29,143 nucleotides of DNA from Gammaproteobacteria bacterium (GTDB lineage: Bacteria > Pseudomonadota > Gammaproteobacteria > Thiohalomonadales > Thiohalomonadaceae), in the NCBI GenBank assembly GCA_015232955.1, contig JADFYS010000001.1, forward strand, positions 1 through 29,143, in the 5' to 3' direction. The position numbers were made by a program, and so were the translations under genes. The notes under the pieces were generated by a model that was not told where the DNA came from, did no database searches, and was given only the letters and a program-made list of their open reading frames with translations. Shown here in pieces: positions 6,205 through 16,540 of this stretch. The first letter of the stretch is position 1. Each line of letters opens with the position of its first letter.

Positions 6205-7857
6205 ATGGCGCAATTACCACCATCGACCGTGTCAGAGAGGATAGAACCTCTGCCAAGCGATGTGATTATGGCTTTTTTGGCCGCCCCTCCTGAGGGGACT
6301 CCGGCAGAGGTTTTGGCCGCTTTTGTGGCGACTGAAGGGGGGCGGTTTCTCCCGCCTCGCCTCTTTGTCGAGACGGTTGAGCAGGCGCCGGTAGCGATCT
6401 CGATCACGGATCCGAGTGCAAAAATTCTCTATGTGAATCAATCTTTTGAGAAACTTACAGGCTTTGATAGACTGGATGTTATCGGCAGAAAAGAGTCGAT
6501 CCTCTCCAGTGATTCGACCCCGGTTGAGGTTTATCGTCAACTGTGGGAGACCATTCGCGAGGGGAAGGTGTGGAGTGGCCGTCTGGTCAACTTGCGTCAG
6601 GACAAAAGTGAGTACCTCGCCGAGTTGACCATCTCTCCCGTCTACTCTGCGCGAGAGGAGATCGCCTACTATCTGGGGATGCACCGCGATATTACACCGC
6701 TGCACCAACTTGAACAGCGTCTCACCTTTCAGCGGGGGTTGACCGAGGCGGCGCTGAATGCGGTGCCGATGCTGGTTGCGGTGATCAACTCAGAGCGTAA
6801 GGTGTTACTGCATAATCACGCCTACACTACGCTACAAGAGGATCTGGCAGGGGCAGAACCGGGTTCGCTCCTCCTCGATGCCCTCTTTCAACAGAGTGAT
6901 TATGATTTTAAAAGCGCCTGTCATGCCGGTCAGAGCTTCTCCAACCTCGATGTCCGCCTCGATATCGCCTCGGCACAGTCACCGCGCTGGTTTAGCTGCT
7001 CAGGGGTGCGGGTGCGAGAGCTGGATGATGCGGCGGGTGATTACTTTCACCCCGCCCCCAAACAGCGCTGCTGCCTGCTCTTAACCGCCAATGAGGTGAC
7101 TGAGAGTCGGAACCGGATACAGGAGGCGCGGCTCAATATGATTCGCAGCCGAATGGACGAACTGCGGCGGATACAGACCATGCGCGAGACCCTCTCCGCC
7201 GCCATCTTTAAGTTGCAGGCGCCGATGAATGTGATTCGGGCGGCTCTGGCGATGGAGACCCCCCGCGATCCCGAAAGCCTGCGCACTGTTTTAGAGCAGG
7301 TGTTGGAGAATGGGGATGATGCGTTGGCGACGATTGAGTCCGCACTGCCGGTAACGGTTACGGAACAGCGTTCGGATCTGAGTATCAATGCGCTGCTGCA
7401 AGAGGTGTTGAAACTCTCTACCGAAAAGCTGCTCGCAGCGGGGGTGGTCGTTGACTGGCGTCCCGATCCGCTGCTACCGCTGGTGAAGGGGCAGGAGAAT
7501 GGGCTGCGCGGACTCTTTCTCGCCTTGATTGATAATGCGATCACCGCGCTTGCGGAAAGTGGCAAGAGCCAGCGCGAGATCCGGATCCAGAATCGGGTTG
7601 CCGGTGAGGCGGTGCTGGTAGAGGTGATGGACAACGGCACCGGTATTGAAGAGGAGATCCGCTTTAAGGTGTTTGAGCCGTTTTTCTGTGGCTGGCGTCG
7701 TGCCGGCAAACATGCGGGGGTGGGACTCTCCATTGCCCAGGAGGTGATGGTCAATCATGGCGGGAGTATCGAGGTGGATCCCAACTTTCAGGGGGGGTGC
7801 CGTCTCTTTGTAAGAATCCCGGTCAATGGAGAGGAGGGGAGCAGAGATCATGGATAA
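6205..7857 (+). CDS. nifL: Nitrogen fixation negative regulator NifL (PAS-PAS-GHKL)
   Basis: F.ETVEQAPVAISITD, ESILSS..TP, YLAELTISPV, YYLGMHRD, PRWFSC, LQAPMNVI, LIDNAI, DNGTGI and VFEPFF, collinear with Azotobacter-type NifL; directly upstream of nifA; GGAG SD. Confidence 0.93.
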   Translation: MAQLPPSTVSERIEPLPSDVIMAFLAAPPEGTPAEVLAAFVATEGGRFLPPRLFVETVEQAPVAISITDPSAKILYVNQSFEKLTGFDRLDVIGRKESILSSDSTPVEVYRQLWETIREGKVWSGRLVNLRQDKSEYLAELTISPVYSAREEIAYYLGMHRDITPLHQLEQRLTFQRGLTEAALNAVPMLVAVINSERKVLLHNHAYTTLQEDLAGAEPGSLLLDALFQQSDYDFKSACHAGQSFSNLDVRLDIASAQSPRWFSCSGVRVRELDDAAGDYFHPAPKQRCCLLLTANEVTESRNRIQEARLNMIRSRMDELRRIQTMRETLSAAIFKLQAPMNVIRAALAMETPRDPESLRTVLEQVLENGDDALATIESALPVTVTEQRSDLSINALLQEVLKLSTEKLLAAGVVVDWRPDPLLPLVKGQENGLRGLFLALIDNAITALAESGKSQREIRIQNRVAGEAVLVEVMDNGTGIEEEIRFKVFEPFFCGWRRAGKHAGVGLSIAQEVMVNHGGSIEVDPNFQGGCRLFVRIPVNGEEGSRDHG

Positions 7858-9400
7858 GAGCTACTCCGGTAGTGATGAGCTTAACCGCAATACAATGGAG
7901 AGTGAGCTTGAGACCCTCTATCGTGTCAGCCACATCCTCGGACAGTCACTCAACTTTCACCAGACACTCTCCGGGGTGCTGCGTACTCTGAGTGAGACCG
8001 GAAATCTCGGTCACGGCATGGTGGGGCTGCTCGACGAAGAGAGTGGTGATCTTCTGGTTACCGCAGTGCATGAGGGGCAGGGTGAACAGCGACCGATCCG
8101 CTATCGGGTCGGAGAGGGGGTGGTGGGATCTATCATCGCCAGTGGCCGGTCAAAGGTGGTGCAGCGAATTGCCGATGATCCCGACTTTCTCGATCGTCTC
8201 GGGCTCTATGACTCTAGCCTGCCGTTTATCGGCGTTCCCATCCTTATCGGTGAACAGGCCGCAGGCGTCTTGGCGGCGCAACCGTCGCTGAAGATGGAGA
8301 ACCTGCAGCAGGGGGAGCGCTTCTTGCGGATGGTGGCCAATCTTATCGGGCAGAGTGTGCGTCTGGCGAAGAGGGTTGAAGATGAGCGGCTGGCGCTGAA
8401 GAGTGAACGGGACTCTCTGCGACGGGAGATTCGGGGCGAGCACGGCTTTTCGAATATGGTGGGCCATTCGCGCAGTATGCGCCTGATCTTTGATCAGGTG
8501 CGACAGGTGGCGAAATGGAACACCACCGTTTTGATTCGAGGGGAGTCGGGAACAGGTAAAGAGTTGATCGCCAACGCCATTCACTACAACTCTCCCCGTG
8601 CCAACGGTCCGTTTATCAAACTCAACAGCGCCGCACTACCCGACACCTTGCTCGAATCGGAACTCTTTGGCCATGAGAAAGGGGCGTTTACCGGCGCCTC
8701 GGGACAGCGCAAGGGCCGTTTTGAACAGGCCCATGGCGGGACCCTCTTTCTCGATGAGATCGGCGAGATCACCCCCGCATTTCAGGCAAAACTGCTGCGG
8801 GTGCTACAGGAGGGCGAATTTGAGCGGGTGGGGGGAACACGAACACAGAAGGTAGATGTACGGGTGGTGGCGGCGACCAATAAGGATCTGGAGCAAGAGG
8901 TGCAGGAGGGGAGTTTTCGTGAGGATCTCTACTACCGTCTCAATGTGATGCCAATCTACCCCCCGCCGCTGCGTGAACGAACCGAGGATATCCCCGATCT
9001 TGCCCGTTTTCTTGTCGCCAAAATAGGTCGCAATCAGGGGCGGAAACTGACCATGGAAGAGAGCGCTGTCGGCTTGCTGATGCGTTACGCCTGGCCGGGA
9101 AATGTTCGTGAACTGGAAAACTGTCTTGAGCGGGCAGCGGTGATGAGTGAAGAGGGGTTGATTAACGCCCACGCCATCCAGTTGACCGGGGTGGACGCAC
9201 AGCTCGCCCCCTCTTACGAGTTGGTCACAACCCCCGAAGTCGATTTTGATGATCCAGAACTCGATGAGCGCGAGCGGGTGATTGCAGCCCTTGAGCAGGC
9301 AGGTTGGGTCCAGGCGAAGGCGGCACGACTTCTGGGAATGACTCCGCGTCAGATCGGCTACCGAATTCAGACCCTCAATATCCAGATGCGGCGAATCTAA
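7850..9400 (+). CDS. nifA: NifA sigma54-dependent activator (GAF-AAA+-HTH); start corrected to ATG 7850
   Basis: [41 protein letters not shown] and the NifA-typical C-terminus [22 protein letters not shown]. Overlaps the nifL stop by 8 nt; GGAGGGG SD. Confidence 0.96.
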
Positions 9401-10755: not shown

Positions 10756-12900
10756 TCACTTACTACGGTACTGATACACCCCGTCAAAATGGGTAGGTGG
10801 ATATTGTAGCAGCTCTTGGCAACGCTCGAGGTAGAGCTGGTAGAGTGGCTCTGGCCTCTGCTCCTGTATCTGCTGAAACCGCTCCTGCGCCTCTTGAAAC
10901 GCCCCCTGTTGATAGCAGGAGAGGGCCTGTCCGTACGCCTCGGCCTCTGCTGCTGCGGGGGGTGCCTCCAGCACCTGATAGATGGTTACAGGCTGCTGCT
11001 TCCCTTTCACCTGGATCCGATCCAGCTCCCGTAGCGGATAGCTCCGCTGTAGCCGCTCCCGTGTCTCTTCGGTGATAATAATTCGCGCCCCGTAGCGCTT
11101 GCACATCCCCTCCACTCGTGAGGCGAGATTGACTGCATCGCCGATGATGGTGTAGTCGGAGCGGCCGCTTGAACCCATCTCGCCTACAATGACCTCGCCG
11201 CTGTGAATACCGATCCCAATGTCGATGGTCACCCCAAACTGCTGTTGAAGAAGGCGGTTGACCTGCGGCAGGAGACGAAGCTGCTCCAGCGCAGTGGTGA
11301 CAGCGCTATCCGCGTGATCCGTCACCCGGTTGGGGGCGTTCCAGTAGGCCATTATCGCATCGCCAATCATCTTGTCCACCGTCCCCTGACTGTCGATGAC
11401 ACTGTCAACCATCGGCGTCATATAGAGGTTTAAGAGCGCAATCACCCGCTCGGGATCAGCGATCTCCTCGCAGAGGGTGGTGAAGTTACGCACATCGGAG
11501 AAGAAGATGGTGACCTCACCACGGTGTCCGATTAGGCGTTCGCTACCGCCATGTTTGAGAATATCCTCTACCACTGTCGCTGAGACCTTTCGCGCAAAAT
11601 TGGCCCGAATCATCTTCCGCCGACAGCTTTCGATGTAAAGATTGAGCAGCGCCGAAGAGGTGGTCATCCCGATAAGCAGCAGCAGGGGAAAGAGGAGGTT
11701 CACCACCAGCCGCTGCTCTAGCAGCACCATCTGCGCCACGGTATAGAACAGCCAGACGCAGCCAGCCACCACCGCCACCATCAACCACGCCGGTAGAAAC
11801 GGATAGAGTAGCGCCAGCAGCAGCCCGAAAGTCACCATTGTCACCACCTCTGCCCCGGTTAACCAGTCAGGGCGCTGCAGCTCTCTGCCATCGAGGAGGT
11901 TCTGCAGGGCGGTGGCATGAATCTCCACCCCCGGCATCGCCTTGTCAAAGGGTGTGGGACGGAGATCCACCAACCCGGTGGCGGTGGCACCGATAAGAAC
12001 AGTTCTCCCCGCCACCTCTTCGGGATCGAACCTGCCGCTGTAGATTGCAGCGGCACTGAGGTAGGGGAAGGTGTGGCCCGGGCCGTGGTAGTTGAGGTGA
12101 AGTAGTCCCCGATTATCGGTGGCGATACGCCGCGCCCCGATATCGATGGCGGTGATGCCGCTCGGCTGATGATCGATTTTTGGGATTTCGCCACCCTGCA
12201 GTAGTCGATAAAGCTCTAGCGCAATGGAGGGATAGAGCGCTCCTTTGTACTCCAGCAGCAGCGGAAGCTGGCGAATATCGCCACTGGCGGTGGGTAGGTA
12301 GTTCAAAAAACCGGCACTAATCGCCGCCTGTTGTAGCATAGGGAGGTTGGTCACTGCACCTGAGGCGGTGTGAAACCACTGCTCCTCTGCCTGCCAGCCG
12401 GGGGTTACACCTACGCTTCCCAAAAGGTGATCTACCACAGCCGTATCTTGCTGTTGATTCATCGTCAGAGCGTACCCCAGCACCACCGGTGTCGCGGCGA
12501 TGGTCTCTGCGAGGATGGCGTCATAGTCAGGGAGTCGTTCTGCAGAGAGACCAAATCGTGCCGCTATCGCTCCGGGTGAGGTGCGATCCGCCTCGGCAAA
12601 GATGATATCGATCCCGATCACCAGCGCACCGGCGCGATCAAGATTGGCGAGGATACGGGCGATCTTATGGCGCTCCCACGGCCACTGTCCCAACGCTTGC
12701 AGACTCGGTTCATCGACCGCGACGATAACCACCTCACCTCCCGGTGGCCGCAGACCGCGATCGCGCAGCAGTAGGTCCTGCAGCTGATTATCCAGCGGTT
12801 GCCACGCCCCGGGAAAAAGGAGGTAAAACGGGATCAAGAGCGAGAGGAGAAGAGTCCCCAGCGCAAGGTGTGGCGAAATCCGAGAGATGATTGTATTCAT
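10756..12900 (-). CDS. CHASE2-domain class III adenylate cyclase (TM-CHASE2-3TM-cyclase-TPR-like tail)
   Basis: CHASE2 motifs (VVIVAVDE.SL..LGQWPW.R, IGIDIIFAE.DR, LIGATA.GL.D...TP...MPGVEIHA), three TMs, then FFSDVRNFT, DKMIGDAIMAYWNAP and DYTIIGDAVNLASRVE (Lys/Thr ATP-specifying residues). Confidence 0.93.
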   Translation of the reverse strand: MNTIISRISPHLALGTLLLSLLIPFYLLFPGAWQPLDNQLQDLLLRDRGLRPPGGEVVIVAVDEPSLQALGQWPWERHKIARILANLDRAGALVIGIDIIFAEADRTSPGAIAARFGLSAERLPDYDAILAETIAATPVVLGYALTMNQQQDTAVVDHLLGSVGVTPGWQAEEQWFHTASGAVTNLPMLQQAAISAGFLNYLPTASGDIRQLPLLLEYKGALYPSIALELYRLLQGGEIPKIDHQPSGITAIDIGARRIATDNRGLLHLNYHGPGHTFPYLSAAAIYSGRFDPEEVAGRTVLIGATATGLVDLRPTPFDKAMPGVEIHATALQNLLDGRELQRPDWLTGAEVVTMVTFGLLLALLYPFLPAWLMVAVVAGCVWLFYTVAQMVLLEQRLVVNLLFPLLLLIGMTTSSALLNLYIESCRRKMIRANFARKVSATVVEDILKHGGSERLIGHRGEVTIFFSDVRNFTTLCEEIADPERVIALLNLYMTPMVDSVIDSQGTVDKMIGDAIMAYWNAPNRVTDHADSAVTTALEQLRLLPQVNRLLQQQFGVTIDIGIGIHSGEVIVGEMGSSGRSDYTIIGDAVNLASRVEGMCKRYGARIIITEETRERLQRSYPLRELDRIQVKGKQQPVTIYQVLEAPPAAAEAEAYGQALSCYQQGAFQEAQERFQQIQEQRPEPLYQLYLERCQELLQYPPTHFDGVYQYRSK

Positions 12901-12982
12901 AACGGAGGTGGATTATATTCTTTGGGGTATGTTGAGCCGAACCGTAATTCGTCATAGTACCCCACCCTCTACCCCAGCCCCA

Positions 12983-13921
12983 ATGGGTCGCTCTCTCTTT
13001 TCTCGACTGATCACCTTCTTTCTCTGCACCCTGCTGGTAATCTCTCCCCCGTCGCTGGCCAAGGTGGCTGTTAATCTCAGTGTCGAAAGCCGATATGAGG
13101 AGAATATCGCACGCGTCGCAAGCCCTACCACGGCTCTCTCTGACCAGATTCTCCAAACCAAAATCGGTGTCGGCTCATTGTGGATCCGCGGCAACCACAG
13201 CGGGTTCAACCTCAGCGCTAGCGCCAGCTACCTTGACCATCTTCGCTACGGTGGTTTGGATCACCTTCTGTTTGAGACGAGCCTGCGTTGGCGCTTCAAA
13301 CCAGATCTCGCCTTTAGCGCACCTTGGTATGGGGTTCGCTTTAGCCTGTCGCACCACAACTACCCCGGATCAGAGCTTCGTGATGGGAACGGTTATGACC
13401 TTGAGGCGAGTGGTGGCAAGCGGCTGAGTGACCGCATTCTCATTCGGGTGGGGGTCGGTCACAGCCGATTTGTGCCGAATGATGGCGCAGGGGTAGAGCG
13501 ATCCTGGCTCGGGAGTACCCAAAGCAGCTCCGTCTTTAAGACCGAGACCAGCCGCATCTTCGCCGGCCTCGACTACCGCCTCTGGAAAGCGACCCTCTAC
13601 AGCCAGCTCACTTATCAGAGAGGGGATCTTCTCTCTGCCATGGGGTACGCCTCACCCTCTGTATGGGGTAACCCGGTAACTCTAAGTGGGTTGGAGCAGA
13701 CATTAGGCCACTCTCAGGCCTACTTTGCTGACGATGCGCTTCCGTTGGTGATCTATCGTCTCGATGGCTCTGCCCACATTGCCGATGTCGGGTTCAACTA
13801 CCCCGTTAACCGCTATCTCGCCCTTGATCTCATGCTGCGGGTAGTGGAGAGTAGCGCCGAAAACGATATGGACTACAGCAACCGCTCCGCCCATCTTGGT
13901 CTCTTCTACCGCTGGAAATAG
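12983..13921 (+). CDS. Putative outer-membrane beta-barrel protein (start uncertain: 12929 or 12983)
   Basis: Signal-peptide-like N-terminus (RSLFSRLITFFLCTLLVISPPSLA), many alternating hydrophobic/aromatic strands, and a C-terminal beta-signal-like HLGLFYRWK. Confidence 0.6.
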   Translation: MGRSLFSRLITFFLCTLLVISPPSLAKVAVNLSVESRYEENIARVASPTTALSDQILQTKIGVGSLWIRGNHSGFNLSASASYLDHLRYGGLDHLLFETSLRWRFKPDLAFSAPWYGVRFSLSHHNYPGSELRDGNGYDLEASGGKRLSDRILIRVGVGHSRFVPNDGAGVERSWLGSTQSSSVFKTETSRIFAGLDYRLWKATLYSQLTYQRGDLLSAMGYASPSVWGNPVTLSGLEQTLGHSQAYFADDALPLVIYRLDGSAHIADVGFNYPVNRYLALDLMLRVVESSAENDMDYSNRSAHLGLFYRWK

Positions 13922-13930
13922 GAGCCATTT

Positions 13931-14716
13931 GTGACCAGCCTTGACCCCAGAAGAAGAGTCCTGCTTCGTGCACTGGCCGCCGGACTCACCCTCGCCGGCG
14001 GCGGTTTCCGTCTTACTCACGCTGAGGAGACCCTTTTCGGTGGTGTCCCTCACCCCCTCTCTGCCGGCAAGAGCCTCTACCGTATTCGGGGAGAGGTCAG
14101 AGTGAACGACAAGATTGCAGACGAATCCACCCGCATCAGGGCCAATGACACCATCACCACAGAGGATGACAGTGAGGCGATTTTTGTCGTCGGTCAAGAC
14201 GCCTTCTTTCTCCGTCAGAAGAGCGAACTCCAGCTCACAGGACGGGAGAAGCTGCAGGCCCGACTCCGCCAGCGCCCCCTCTCATCCCCACCCACTCCGA
14301 CCACTGAGGCGGACGATTCAGGCGTGGTGGAGTCATTCAGGCTGGTTACCGGTGGTCTGCTCACCGTTTTTGGCAAGAGTGATCACAAGGCGAGCACGAG
14401 CACTGCCACTGTCGGTATTCGTGGCACCGGGGTCTATTTTGAGTCCGAGCCTCACCGCAGCTATGTCTGCACCTGTTACGGCACAACCTTAATCAGCGCC
14501 AGCGATGACCCCGCTTCCAGCGTCAAAGTCAAATCACAACACCACGACGCTGCAAAATATATCTATCGCGGTGATGACTATCAGGCGCGAATTACCGCTG
14601 CTCCTTTTAAAAATCACGAGGATCTCGAGTTAATGATCCTCGAGGCACTGGTTGGGCGGACCCCCCCCTTTGCTGTAGCGGGTGAAGCCTACGGCGCCCC
14701 ACGCCGAGAGTATTAG
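13931..14716 (+). CDS. Tat-signal, FecR-domain-like periplasmic protein with CxC/HH/H motif
   Basis: GTG start with AGGAG SD; RRRVLL twin-arginine motif plus h-region and THA cleavage site. G.VRVN...I...DTITT...SEA.F..G and T.TATVGIRGT are FecR-like. YVCTCYG, QHHD and KNHED follow. Confidence 0.7.
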   Translation: MTSLDPRRRVLLRALAAGLTLAGGGFRLTHAEETLFGGVPHPLSAGKSLYRIRGEVRVNDKIADESTRIRANDTITTEDDSEAIFVVGQDAFFLRQKSELQLTGREKLQARLRQRPLSSPPTPTTEADDSGVVESFRLVTGGLLTVFGKSDHKASTSTATVGIRGTGVYFESEPHRSYVCTCYGTTLISASDDPASSVKVKSQHHDAAKYIYRGDDYQARITAAPFKNHEDLELMILEALVGRTPPFAVAGEAYGAPRREY

Positions 14717-14837: not shown

Positions 14838-15161
14838 ATGGATCCACTAGCAAGAATTAAAGCTCAGGTCGAGGGCAATCCAGTTGTCATCTACATGAAG
14901 GGGACGCCTCAGTTTCCCAGTTGTGGTTATTCGAGTCGCGCCTCGCAGGCGCTGCAGCAGTGCGGAGTCCCTTTTGCGCACTTCAATGTCTTAGCTGATC
15001 AAGAGATCTATGAGAACCTTCCCAATTACGCCGACTGGCCCACATTTCCCCAGATCTATGTCAAAGGGGAGCTGATAGGCGGTCACGACATTGTGATGGA
15101 ACTCTTCCAAAAAGGGGAGTTAAAACCAATGCTTGAGGCTGCGGTTGCAGCCTCGGACTGA
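14838..15161 (+). CDS. grxD: Monothiol glutaredoxin Grx4/GrxD family
   Basis: YMKGTPQFPSCGYS, WPTFPQIYVKGELIGG; 107 aa; GAGG SD. Confidence 0.9.
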   Translation: MDPLARIKAQVEGNPVVIYMKGTPQFPSCGYSSRASQALQQCGVPFAHFNVLADQEIYENLPNYADWPTFPQIYVKGELIGGHDIVMELFQKGELKPMLEAAVAASD

Positions 15162-15202
15162 TATTTGTTGACAGAATCACCAGGACTTTCTCTGGCAGCA
15201 GA

Positions 15203-15230
15203 GGAACTGTCTCTGACGGTTACTGTCTCA
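15203..15230 (+). promoter_or_regulatory. Putative ECF (sigmaE-type) promoter of msrAB
   Basis: GGAACT-N16-GTCTCA matches the GGAAC(T)-N16/17-GTCnnA pattern. Confidence 0.5.
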
Positions 15231-15252
15231 TCACTTTAGGGTGGATGTGAGG

Positions 15253-15407
15253 CAATGCTGTTAAGTTAGTGGACTGCGAAGGGATCTCCGCTACCCGATT
15301 GACGGGTGTCGATGGCATGGACGCCATCGTCAAGCCCCCATGGACGGGTTTACGGCGTCCCGCCAATCGGGTAGCGGAGATCCCCACCCTTAAACTTAAT
15401 GACATTG
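15253..15407. mobile_element. 155-bp IS4-family (IS4 subgroup-like) MITE
   Basis: TIRs CAATGCTGTTAAGTT / AACTTAATGACATTG; perfect 10-bp TSD GGATGTGAGG (15243-15252, 15408-15417); internal 21-bp perfect inverted repeat enclosing two hairpins. Confidence 0.88.
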
Positions 15408-15424
15408 GGATGTGAGGCGGTGCA

Positions 15425-16540
15425 ATGAAAAGCAGATTTAGCGGCAAGATAGCCGCTCTTTTGGGAGTGGTGGGGCTATCGACAGTGGTGGCGACCGTGC
15501 AGTTAACAGCAGAGGAGGCGACGATGGGTGAGGTCAATGAGAGAGCGGTAGCCACTTTTGCCGGGGGATGCTTCTGGTGTGTCGAATCCGGTTTTGAAAA
15601 AGTCCCCGGTGTCGGGGATGTCATCTCCGGTTATGCCGGTGGCGAAACGGAGAACCCCACCTACGCCGAGGTATCCGCAGGAGGTAGCGGACATCTTGAG
15701 GTGGTTCAGGTTCATTATGACCCGGAGAAGATCGACTATCGAACTCTGCTGGACTATTTTTGGCGGCAGATAGATCCCACAGACATTGGGGGGCAGTTTG
15801 TCGACAGGGGGAGCCAGTATCGCCCCGCCATCTTCTACCACAACAGCATGCAGAAGCAGGCAGCAGAGGCGTCGCGGAGAGAGCTGAATGAGAGTGGTCG
15901 CTACTCGCAGCCGGTAACGATTGAGATTCTTCCCTTCACCAAGTTCTACAGTGCCGAGGAGTACCATCAGGACTACTACAAGAAAAATCCTGTTCGCTAT
16001 AAATTCTATCGTTTTAACTCTGGGCGCGATAGCTATCTTGAAAAGGTGTGGGGTGAGGATCTTCATTTTCAGCCCAAAGCGCCGCAGTCACAGAAGGGGC
16101 AGCAGTACAAACAACCGGAAAGCTCGTCGCAGTTGCGCCAGCGGCTTACCCCTTTACAGTACGATGTAACCCAGAATAACGGTACAGAGCGCCCCTTTGC
16201 CAATGAGTTTTGGGACGAAAAGCGACAAGGGATCTATGTTGATATCGTCTCTGGAGAGCCTCTGTTTTCGTCGCAAGACAAGTTTGACTCCGGCACCGGT
16301 TGGCCGAGCTTTGTCAGGCCGCTCGCTGCAGAGAACATTGTTGAAAAGGTCGACTCATCGCTGTTTATGAGCCGAACCGAGGTGAGAAGTCGTTCCGGGA
16401 ACTCTCACCTGGGACACCTATTTGATGACGGCCCCCAACCAACTGGGTTACGCTACTGCATTAACTCGGCCTCGCTTCGATTTATTGCGAAAGAAGATCT
16501 GGAAAAAGAGGGGTATGGCCAGTTTCTGTCACTCTTTTGA
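15425..16540 (+). CDS. msrAB: Bifunctional peptide-methionine sulfoxide reductase MsrA-MsrB with signal peptide
   Basis: [19 protein letters not shown] and AEEYHQDYY (MsrA); [33 protein letters not shown] (MsrB); Sec-type N-terminus. Confidence 0.95.

Follow-up and report, generated by a model that had tools for sequence, protein, structure and literature searches.

A candidate split envelope-signaling module in a gammaproteobacterium, pairing a FecR-fold protein and an outer-membrane barrel with a CHASE2 adenylate cyclase

We analyzed a 29,143-nucleotide stretch of DNA from a gammaproteobacterium of the Thiohalomonadaceae (GenBank assembly GCA_015232955.1, contig JADFYS010000001.1, positions 1 to 29,143; hereafter the window) and focus on three intact genes at 10756-14716, which encode a class III adenylate cyclase with a CHASE2 sensor domain on the minus strand and a predicted outer-membrane beta-barrel and a FecR-like protein on the plus strand. 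We propose, with a probability of roughly 0.55, that these genes form a three-compartment envelope module resembling NsrA/CyaK of Sinorhizobium meliloti in split form, in which the FecR-fold protein and the barrel modulate the CHASE2 adenylate cyclase. The genes and the signals between them are as follows.

10756..12900, minus strand: CHASE2 class III adenylate cyclase, 714 amino acids (Pfam, homologues)
12901..12982, no strand: divergent intergenic region between the cyclase gene and the barrel operon, 82 bp, head-to-head (sequence)
12983..13921, plus strand: predicted outer-membrane beta-barrel protein, 312 amino acids from ATG 12983 (homologue alignment, AlphaFold2 (AF2) model, Foldseek against PDB and the AlphaFold Database (AFDB))
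13920..13924, plus strand: AGGAG Shine-Dalgarno sequence overlapping the barrel stop codon, 6 nt before GTG 13931 (sequence)
13931..14716, plus strand: periplasmic FecR-fold protein with a putative twin-arginine translocation (Tat) signal, 261 amino acids, GTG start (family alignment, AF2 model, fold matches)

The barrel and FecR-like genes form a translationally coupled operon, since the barrel stop codon overlaps the AGGAG sequence that precedes GTG 13931. A consensus scan found no sigma-70-like site in the spacer at 12901-12982. A preliminary description of this DNA, made from its letters alone, had placed the three genes at 10756-14716 and reported an intact class III cyclase with a periplasmic CHASE2 domain lying less than 100 bp, head-to-head, from a two-gene unit for a predicted barrel (12983) and a periplasmic FecR-like protein, with no FecI-type extracytoplasmic function (ECF) sigma factor or TonB-dependent receptor adjacent. 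Each of these elements stands: the spacer measures 82 bp, the protein assignments are supported by the analyses below, and neither the ECF sigma family (PF04542, Sigma70_r2) nor the TonB-dependent receptor family (PF00593) has a single match anywhere on the 29-kb contig.

Gene order in other genomes provides the first line of support for a link to CHASE2 cyclases. In 83 non-redundant FecR-like loci from other genomes, the barrel gene adjoins the FecR-like gene 68 times, mostly divergently, and the two constitute a conserved two-gene unit. The closest relatives of the window keep all three genes, either as a single operon of barrel, FecR-like and cyclase genes (L004/L010) or arranged divergently as here (L094 and L095). 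The best homologues of the cyclase and those of the FecR-like protein also agree in the length of their longest contigs. A distant betaproteobacterial clade (L068, L071, L084, L085 and L087) again shows adjacency to the cyclase, and in the FecR-like tree such adjacency falls into two separate, well-supported clades, which forces at least two changes.

Phyletic distribution provides the second. In an even draw of about 400 genomes of the class, the FecR-like family (E≤1e-30) is present in 28 of 400, any CHASE2 match in 214 of 401 (a tally that includes G037, a genome flagged as unpublished on which no conclusion depends) and a homologue of the CHASE2 cyclase (E≤1e-100) in 117 of 401. The cyclase homologue accompanies the FecR-like family in 28 of its 28 carriers and occurs in 89 of 373 (24%) non-carriers, with a Fisher p of 8e-17, or 3e-13 by genus, kinship being ignored in both. 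We consider it supported that the pair and CHASE2 cyclases are functionally linked, because the relatives keep the arrangement, a second, betaproteobacterial clade shows it again and the genome-wide counts agree. The preliminary description had looked to co-occurrence of the three families as a check on a three-compartment module. That expectation is borne out for the pair itself and for the presence of the cyclase in carrier genomes; it is not for physical linkage, as the three genes are not generally neighbors.

Comparison with characterized systems suggests what the linked genes may do. NsrA is reported to be the outer-membrane component required for signal perception by CHASE2 cyclases in S. 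meliloti (PMC7529298, PMC13001267). In the pSymB record of this species, the NsrA gene lies directly upstream of cyaK, and in its 1197 residues the protein itself has a signal peptide and TPR repeats as well as a match to Pfam FecR (1.5e-15) and, at the C-terminus, a barrel whose last residues are ...VRF; this makes the analogy to NsrA/CyaK stronger than the preliminary description had claimed. Both NsrA/CyaK (also CyaD1/D2) and the window encode a FecR domain and a barrel beside a CHASE2 class III cyclase, with no ECF sigma factor and with cyclic AMP (cAMP) as the output, and the core of the FecR-like family aligns weakly with the FecR domain of NsrA (hhalign). The differences are considerable: NsrA is one protein with a barrel of about 600 residues, TPR repeats and a Sec-type signal, from a rhizobium, whereas the gammaproteobacterial window encodes a FecR-fold protein that is separate from its barrel, the latter of about 285 residues; neither has TPR, and the Tat motif and Cys/His cluster of the FecR-like protein have no counterpart in NsrA. 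Given that NsrA unites FecR, TPR and barrel beside cyaK, the window appears to hold a split variant of this design that has no TPR and an unrelated barrel.

Related arrangements are known in other bacteria. Campylobacterota CHASE2 cyclases cluster with genes for FecR-domain, TPR/outer-membrane and phosphodiesterase proteins (PMC9239204), and we confirmed FecR/barrel clustering beside a CHASE2 cyclase in Sulfurospirillum oryzae (L096). These cyclases are 38-40% identical to the window enzyme over their full length and have FecR-domain and barrel genes alongside. Their FecR proteins, however, have about 600 residues and a TbpB-like C-terminus, and are accompanied by a TPR-SlipAM (Slam-type) barrel and then a phosphodiesterase/GAF/HD gene, none of which the window has; TbpB_B_D was seen only in the Sulfurospirillum FecR proteins, and the C-terminus of the window's FecR-like protein continues the FecR fold. 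A LysM-FecR protein (COG4254) is paired with a CHASE2 histidine kinase in the Burkholderia 'BiofilmReg' operon and in Pseudomonas aeruginosa PA4035/PA4036 (PMC5192318). There, too, a secreted FecR-domain protein is encoded beside a CHASE2 receptor, although a histidine kinase acting with a response regulator provides the output, LysM is part of the FecR protein and no barrel gene is present; by analogy, this operon fits a pattern in which FecR-fold proteins partner CHASE2 whatever the output domain. The preliminary description had not recognized the combination as characterized in gammaproteobacteria. Because FecR/CHASE2-cyclase clusters are already published (PMC9239204, PMC5192318), it is less novel than that implied.

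Several observations weigh against the proposed module. Only about 10 of the 83 loci have a full-length CHASE2 cyclase gene 4 kb or less from the pair, leaving about 73 without one; a CHASE2 gene of any kind is adjacent in none of the 27 other sampled genomes of the class that carry the FecR-like family; and no third neighbor is conserved beside the pair across the 83 loci. The co-occurrence statistics are uncorrected for phylogeny, and lifestyle or genome content could underlie both features. The relation is also one-way: the cyclase family is common without the pair, including in G286, which has the closest cyclase of the sample, showing that the enzyme can do without these partners. Between the barrel family and the NsrA barrel no homology was detectable (hhalign probability 0.1%), and a Pfam scan found no TPR match in either the barrel or the FecR-like protein, so that the TPR region of NsrA is missing.

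These facts leave room for the main rival reading, in which the pair is an autonomous envelope unit, comprising a channel and a Tat-exported metalloprotein for a metal or redox solute, whose adjacency to the cyclase is incidental or reflects shared regulation only. Such a unit would explain why most loci have only unrelated housekeeping genes around the pair, and why CHASE2 is adjacent in none of the 27 sampled genomes, and a Tat motif together with an invariant Cys/His/Asp/Glu cluster would suit a cofactor protein. We nonetheless think it unlikely, as it leaves unexplained the cyclase homologue in every one of the carriers against 24% of other genomes, the adjacency of the same cyclase family in two separate clades, and the fusion or clustering of FecR domains with barrels beside CHASE2 cyclases in NsrA and the Campylobacterota.

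The cyclase of the split NsrA/CyaK-like module that we favor has the following regions.

12802..12873, minus strand: predicted transmembrane helix 1 of the cyclase, residues 10-33 (hydropathy)
11866..12801, minus strand: predicted periplasmic CHASE2 sensor domain, residues 34-345 (Pfam CHASE2, flanking hydrophobic segments)
11638..11865, minus strand: predicted three-helix membrane block after CHASE2, residues 346-421 (hydropathy)
10975..11520, minus strand: cyclase catalytic domain, residues 461-642 (Pfam)
10759..10965, minus strand: conserved C-terminal helical (TPR-like) tail, residues 646-714 (weak NCBIfam match, alignment)

Pfam CHASE2 (PF05226) matches residues 23-361 at 2.3e-59 (201.5 bits), and Guanylate_cyc (PF00211) matches at 1.5e-26, its 93.6 bits standing against a curated cut-off of 21.9. 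Transmembrane segments were predicted by Kyte-Doolittle hydropathy (19-residue window, mean >1.6). The helix at 10-33 and the membrane block at 346-421 indicate that residues 34-345 face the periplasm, and CHASE2 thus lies between an N-terminal transmembrane helix and a subsequent transmembrane block, the layout of CHASE2 receptors. In an alignment of 40 full-length homologues, four residues never vary (D469, K510, D514 and N591) and two others, D582 and R595, are nearly invariant. By class III motifs, we take Asp469 and Asp514 to bind metal, Lys510 and Asp582 to recognize the substrate and specify ATP, and Asn591 and Arg595 to stabilize the transition state. With this full set of catalytic residues, the enzyme looks like an active adenylate cyclase with an ATP-specific Lys-Asp pair. 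The same alignment shows the C-terminal tail conserved to its final residue; residues 646-689 of it have a weak NCBIfam match to the TPR region of BepA (E 0.058). At E≤1e-40 there are 528 homologues, and all among the matches listed share CHASE2 and Guanylate_cyc.

The regions of the FecR-like protein are listed below.

13931..14020, plus strand: putative twin-arginine signal peptide (DPRRRVLL..., with cleavage predicted after THA at residue 30; alignment)
14066..14455, plus strand: predicted FecR-type beta-sandwich core, about residues 46-175 (family Pfam FecR, hhalign to the NsrA FecR domain, confidence profile of the model)
14456..14713, plus strand: C-terminal extension of the fold with invariant residues and the tail Y..PRR.Y (family alignment, model)

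The window's own protein has no Pfam FecR (PF04773) match at E<0.1 and no useful NCBIfam match. Its assignment comes from the family, 18 of 25 members of which match Pfam FecR (best 5.1e-7), and from the AF2 model (predicted local distance difference test score (pLDDT) 83). Foldseek relates this model, with a probability of 1.0, to the periplasmic anti-sigma domains 4m0n and 4m0h and to PupR (6ovk), and against AFDB clusters 30 of 30 matches are FecR-type or unnamed; 17 of 25 family members are tied by NCBIfam to the Leptospira FecR-type adhesin Lsa33. The model therefore predicts a FecR-type beta-sandwich, whose core holds a clade-specific insert of low confidence (about residues 105-130 in the pLDDT profile) and whose C-terminal third continues a FecR/FecR_C-type sandwich and is not a separate domain. 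Among 1.84 billion, 371 representatives of the family reach E≤1e-30; of 511 pattern-matched stretches in a collection of species-representative genomes, 508 encode a FecR-like relative. Cultivable carriers include relatives in Endothiovibrio diazotrophicus, Solimonas and Methylophilaceae.

C180, C182, H205, H229, D231 and E233 are kept in 85 of 85 members and H204 and D206 are nearly invariant, giving the pattern CxC...HD...HxDxE; the C-terminal Tyr is kept in 84 of 85, within a conserved tail, Y..PRR.Y, that is modeled at low confidence. Of 85 members, 80-83 retain the arginine pair of a DPRRxFL motif, which a hydrophobic region and an AxA-type cleavage site follow. The TIGR01409 Tat model gives weak matches to just 2 of 25 members, and it is from these sequence motifs that we infer both Tat export and cofactor binding.

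The shared fold raises the question of whether this protein is a classical FecR-type regulator of a sigma factor, with its ECF sigma factor and TonB-dependent transducer encoded elsewhere. The likeness to FecA-FecR-FecI and to PupR is confined to the fold of the periplasmic domain, which PupR and the anti-sigma protein BDI_1681 have in common with it. In contrast to these proteins, the window's FecR-like protein lacks both a cytoplasmic anti-sigma domain and a membrane anchor, its sole hydrophobic segment being the putatively cleavable twin-arginine signal. Nor is there a partner for such a role on the 29-kb contig, as the Sigma70_r2 and TonB-dependent receptor searches described above attest, or among the conserved neighbors of the 83 loci, where no cluster of an ECF sigma factor or TonB-dependent receptor was found. 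We consequently reject a classical anti-sigma role as essentially excluded.

The third component lies in an open reading frame spanning 12887-13921. Other in-frame starts exist upstream at 12887, 12908 and 12930; ATG 12983 is the most likely because homologues begin there. The 312-residue product consists of a predicted signal peptide (residues 1-26) and a barrel (27-312). It has no Pfam or NCBIfam match of its own, and a word-index homologue search with it returned only 4 relatives; we therefore assembled the family from the neighbors of FecR-like genes and used its alignment as input for the AF2 model. This model (pLDDT 90, predicted template modeling score 0.84) contains 12 long antiparallel strands. 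Foldseek against PDB gives 331 matches at E≤0.001, led by OmpG, autotransporter beta-domains, CymA, FapF and a COG4313 channel, and the AFDB clusters matched are outer-membrane barrels, TPR-barrel and Slam-named models among them. Pfam OMP_b-brl is matched by 14 of 35 family members, which carry signal peptides and end in an aromatic motif (...YRF(R/K) in the family, ...FYRWK in the window). Combining a signal peptide, an antiparallel barrel and a C-terminal aromatic motif, the product is predicted to be an outer-membrane beta-barrel of about 12 strands.

The presence of Slam-named models among the fold matches bears on another possibility, that the barrel is a Slam/type 11-like translocator or anchor displaying the FecR-like protein as cargo at the cell surface, perhaps via its C-terminal tail. 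Sulfurospirillum and the window's own genome do pair barrels of TPR-SlipAM or BBP2 type with FecR-domain proteins, the first strands of the barrel family match these TPR-barrels weakly in hhalign (probability 26%, E 7e-4), and the conserved, low-confidence tail Y..PRR.Y resembles a partner-binding motif. Yet SlipAM is matched by 0 of 35 barrel family members at E≤1 and no TPR N-domain is present, so that the family lacks both hallmarks of Slam/type 11 secretion (PF04575 SlipAM and TPR_Slam); the TbpB-like 8-stranded barrel of the cargo, seen as a C-terminal domain in the Sulfurospirillum FecR proteins, is missing as well. Moreover, Tat exports its substrates folded, and passage of a folded protein through a barrel of about 12 strands is unlikely. 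We regard a translocator as quite improbable.

For the split envelope module, we envisage the following mechanism. The FecR-fold protein would be exported folded through the Tat pathway, would probably bind a metal or other cofactor at its invariant Cys2/His2-3/Asp/Glu cluster, and may act as a periplasmic co-sensor, or as a protein ligand, of the CHASE2 domain of the cyclase. The barrel would admit the stimulus or tether the FecR-fold protein at the outer membrane, and the output would be cAMP, read by cyclic nucleotide monophosphate (cNMP)-binding proteins encoded elsewhere in the genome, of which there are at least nine. Our analysis shows which proteins and predicted folds the three genes encode, that the barrel and FecR-like genes are coupled in an operon and paired across genomes, and that the pair is nested within genomes with a CHASE2 cyclase; we infer the order of this relay and the receptor role of the barrel, as well as physical contact of the FecR-fold protein with CHASE2 or the barrel, the direction of signaling and the ligand.

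A broader reading is that secreted FecR-fold proteins serve as general co-receptors of CHASE2, and that members of this family are Tat-exported metalloproteins reporting a periplasmic metal or redox state, admitted via the barrel, even where the genes are unlinked. We offer this as a tentative idea, possible but clearly less probable than a module in the window itself. What CHASE2 domains sense is still unknown (PMC5192318), and NsrA/CyaK is the only worked example, a rhizobial special case. The locus described here would be a minimal, split version with separable parts: a small barrel, a soluble FecR-fold protein of 230 residues and a cyclase. Its FecR-like family is widespread, and among the sampled genomes its presence is nested strictly within those that encode the CHASE2 cyclase; the invariant Cys/His/Asp/Glu cluster and the putative Tat signal would offer a direct handle on the stimulus. 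If the link holds, the FecR fold would extend from sigma-factor to second-messenger signaling as a general principle. If the general co-receptor reading is true, it would give a concrete, testable mechanism of CHASE2 sensing in hundreds of beta- and gammaproteobacterial species.

Additional observations concern the surroundings of the pair in other genomes. PKD-domain proteins, ABC ATPases, glucose-6-phosphate dehydrogenase (G6PD) and LytTR regulators occur beside it, each lineage-specific. PKD-domain proteins are encoded directly beside the FecR-like gene in two separate lineages with an adjacent cyclase (L094:3199-4026, minus strand; L068:10724-12667, minus strand) and may be a fourth component. 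In one clade (L037:9993-10946, L051:12802-14121, L082:14403-15683), a cyclase of about 430 residues without CHASE2, homologous to the window enzyme from the transmembrane block onward, lies 2-4 kb downstream of the FecR-like gene, with an ABC ATPase gene and a pseudopilin-like (N_methyl) gene in between. In the Nevskiales locus L007, about 1 kb separates the FecR-like gene from that of a cNMP-binding EAL phosphodiesterase (7846-9057), an arrangement that may connect cAMP to cyclic di-GMP.

CHASE2 proteins also occur in other contexts. The cyclase of G286 closest to the window enzyme (L105, G286:C7, 4688-11678) has as neighbors a TonB-dependent receptor and two secreted proteins whose C-termini are PEP-CTERM-like, not a barrel/FecR-like pair. 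Many FecR-like carriers (for example G280:C4, G183:C31, G175:C9, G126:C21 and G336:C4) encode, only 4-10 kb apart, a CHASE2 cyclase of about 750 residues and another CHASE2 protein of about 850-920 residues, in what looks like a recurrent two-receptor locus. The window's own genome encodes a second full CHASE2 cyclase of 750 residues (C73:791-3043, L002), a partial third (C427, L003) and cyclase homologues that match the membrane block and cyclase domain alone, with no CHASE2 (C91:1652-3367 and C66:11538-12830). It also has three paralogous pairs of a TPR-barrel and a FecR-domain protein (C158, C249 and C98; L090:77-2745, L091:65-2814 and L092:80-3357), each comprising a TPR-plus-barrel protein of 425-433 residues with weak TPR_Slam or BBP2 matches, followed by a FecR-domain protein of 465 to more than 670 residues. 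These pairs are of the Campylobacterota/Slam-like type and distinct from the pair in the window; contigs C73, C158, C249, C98 and C427 span just 2-5 kb, too short to show a CHASE2 gene after the pairs.

Within the window, the flanking genes are of a housekeeping nature (YchJ, a Rieske protein, glutaredoxin, MsrAB and plsX/fabH). Directly 3' of the FecR-like gene, positions 14838-16540 encode a glutaredoxin and then a fused MsrA-MsrB methionine sulfoxide reductase, redox-repair genes that may or may not bear on the Cys/His-containing FecR-like protein. Upstream of the module, at 6205-9400, a PAS histidine-kinase-like gene overlaps that of a GAF-containing sigma-54 activator with a Fis-type helix-turn-helix, resembling a nifL/nifA pair.

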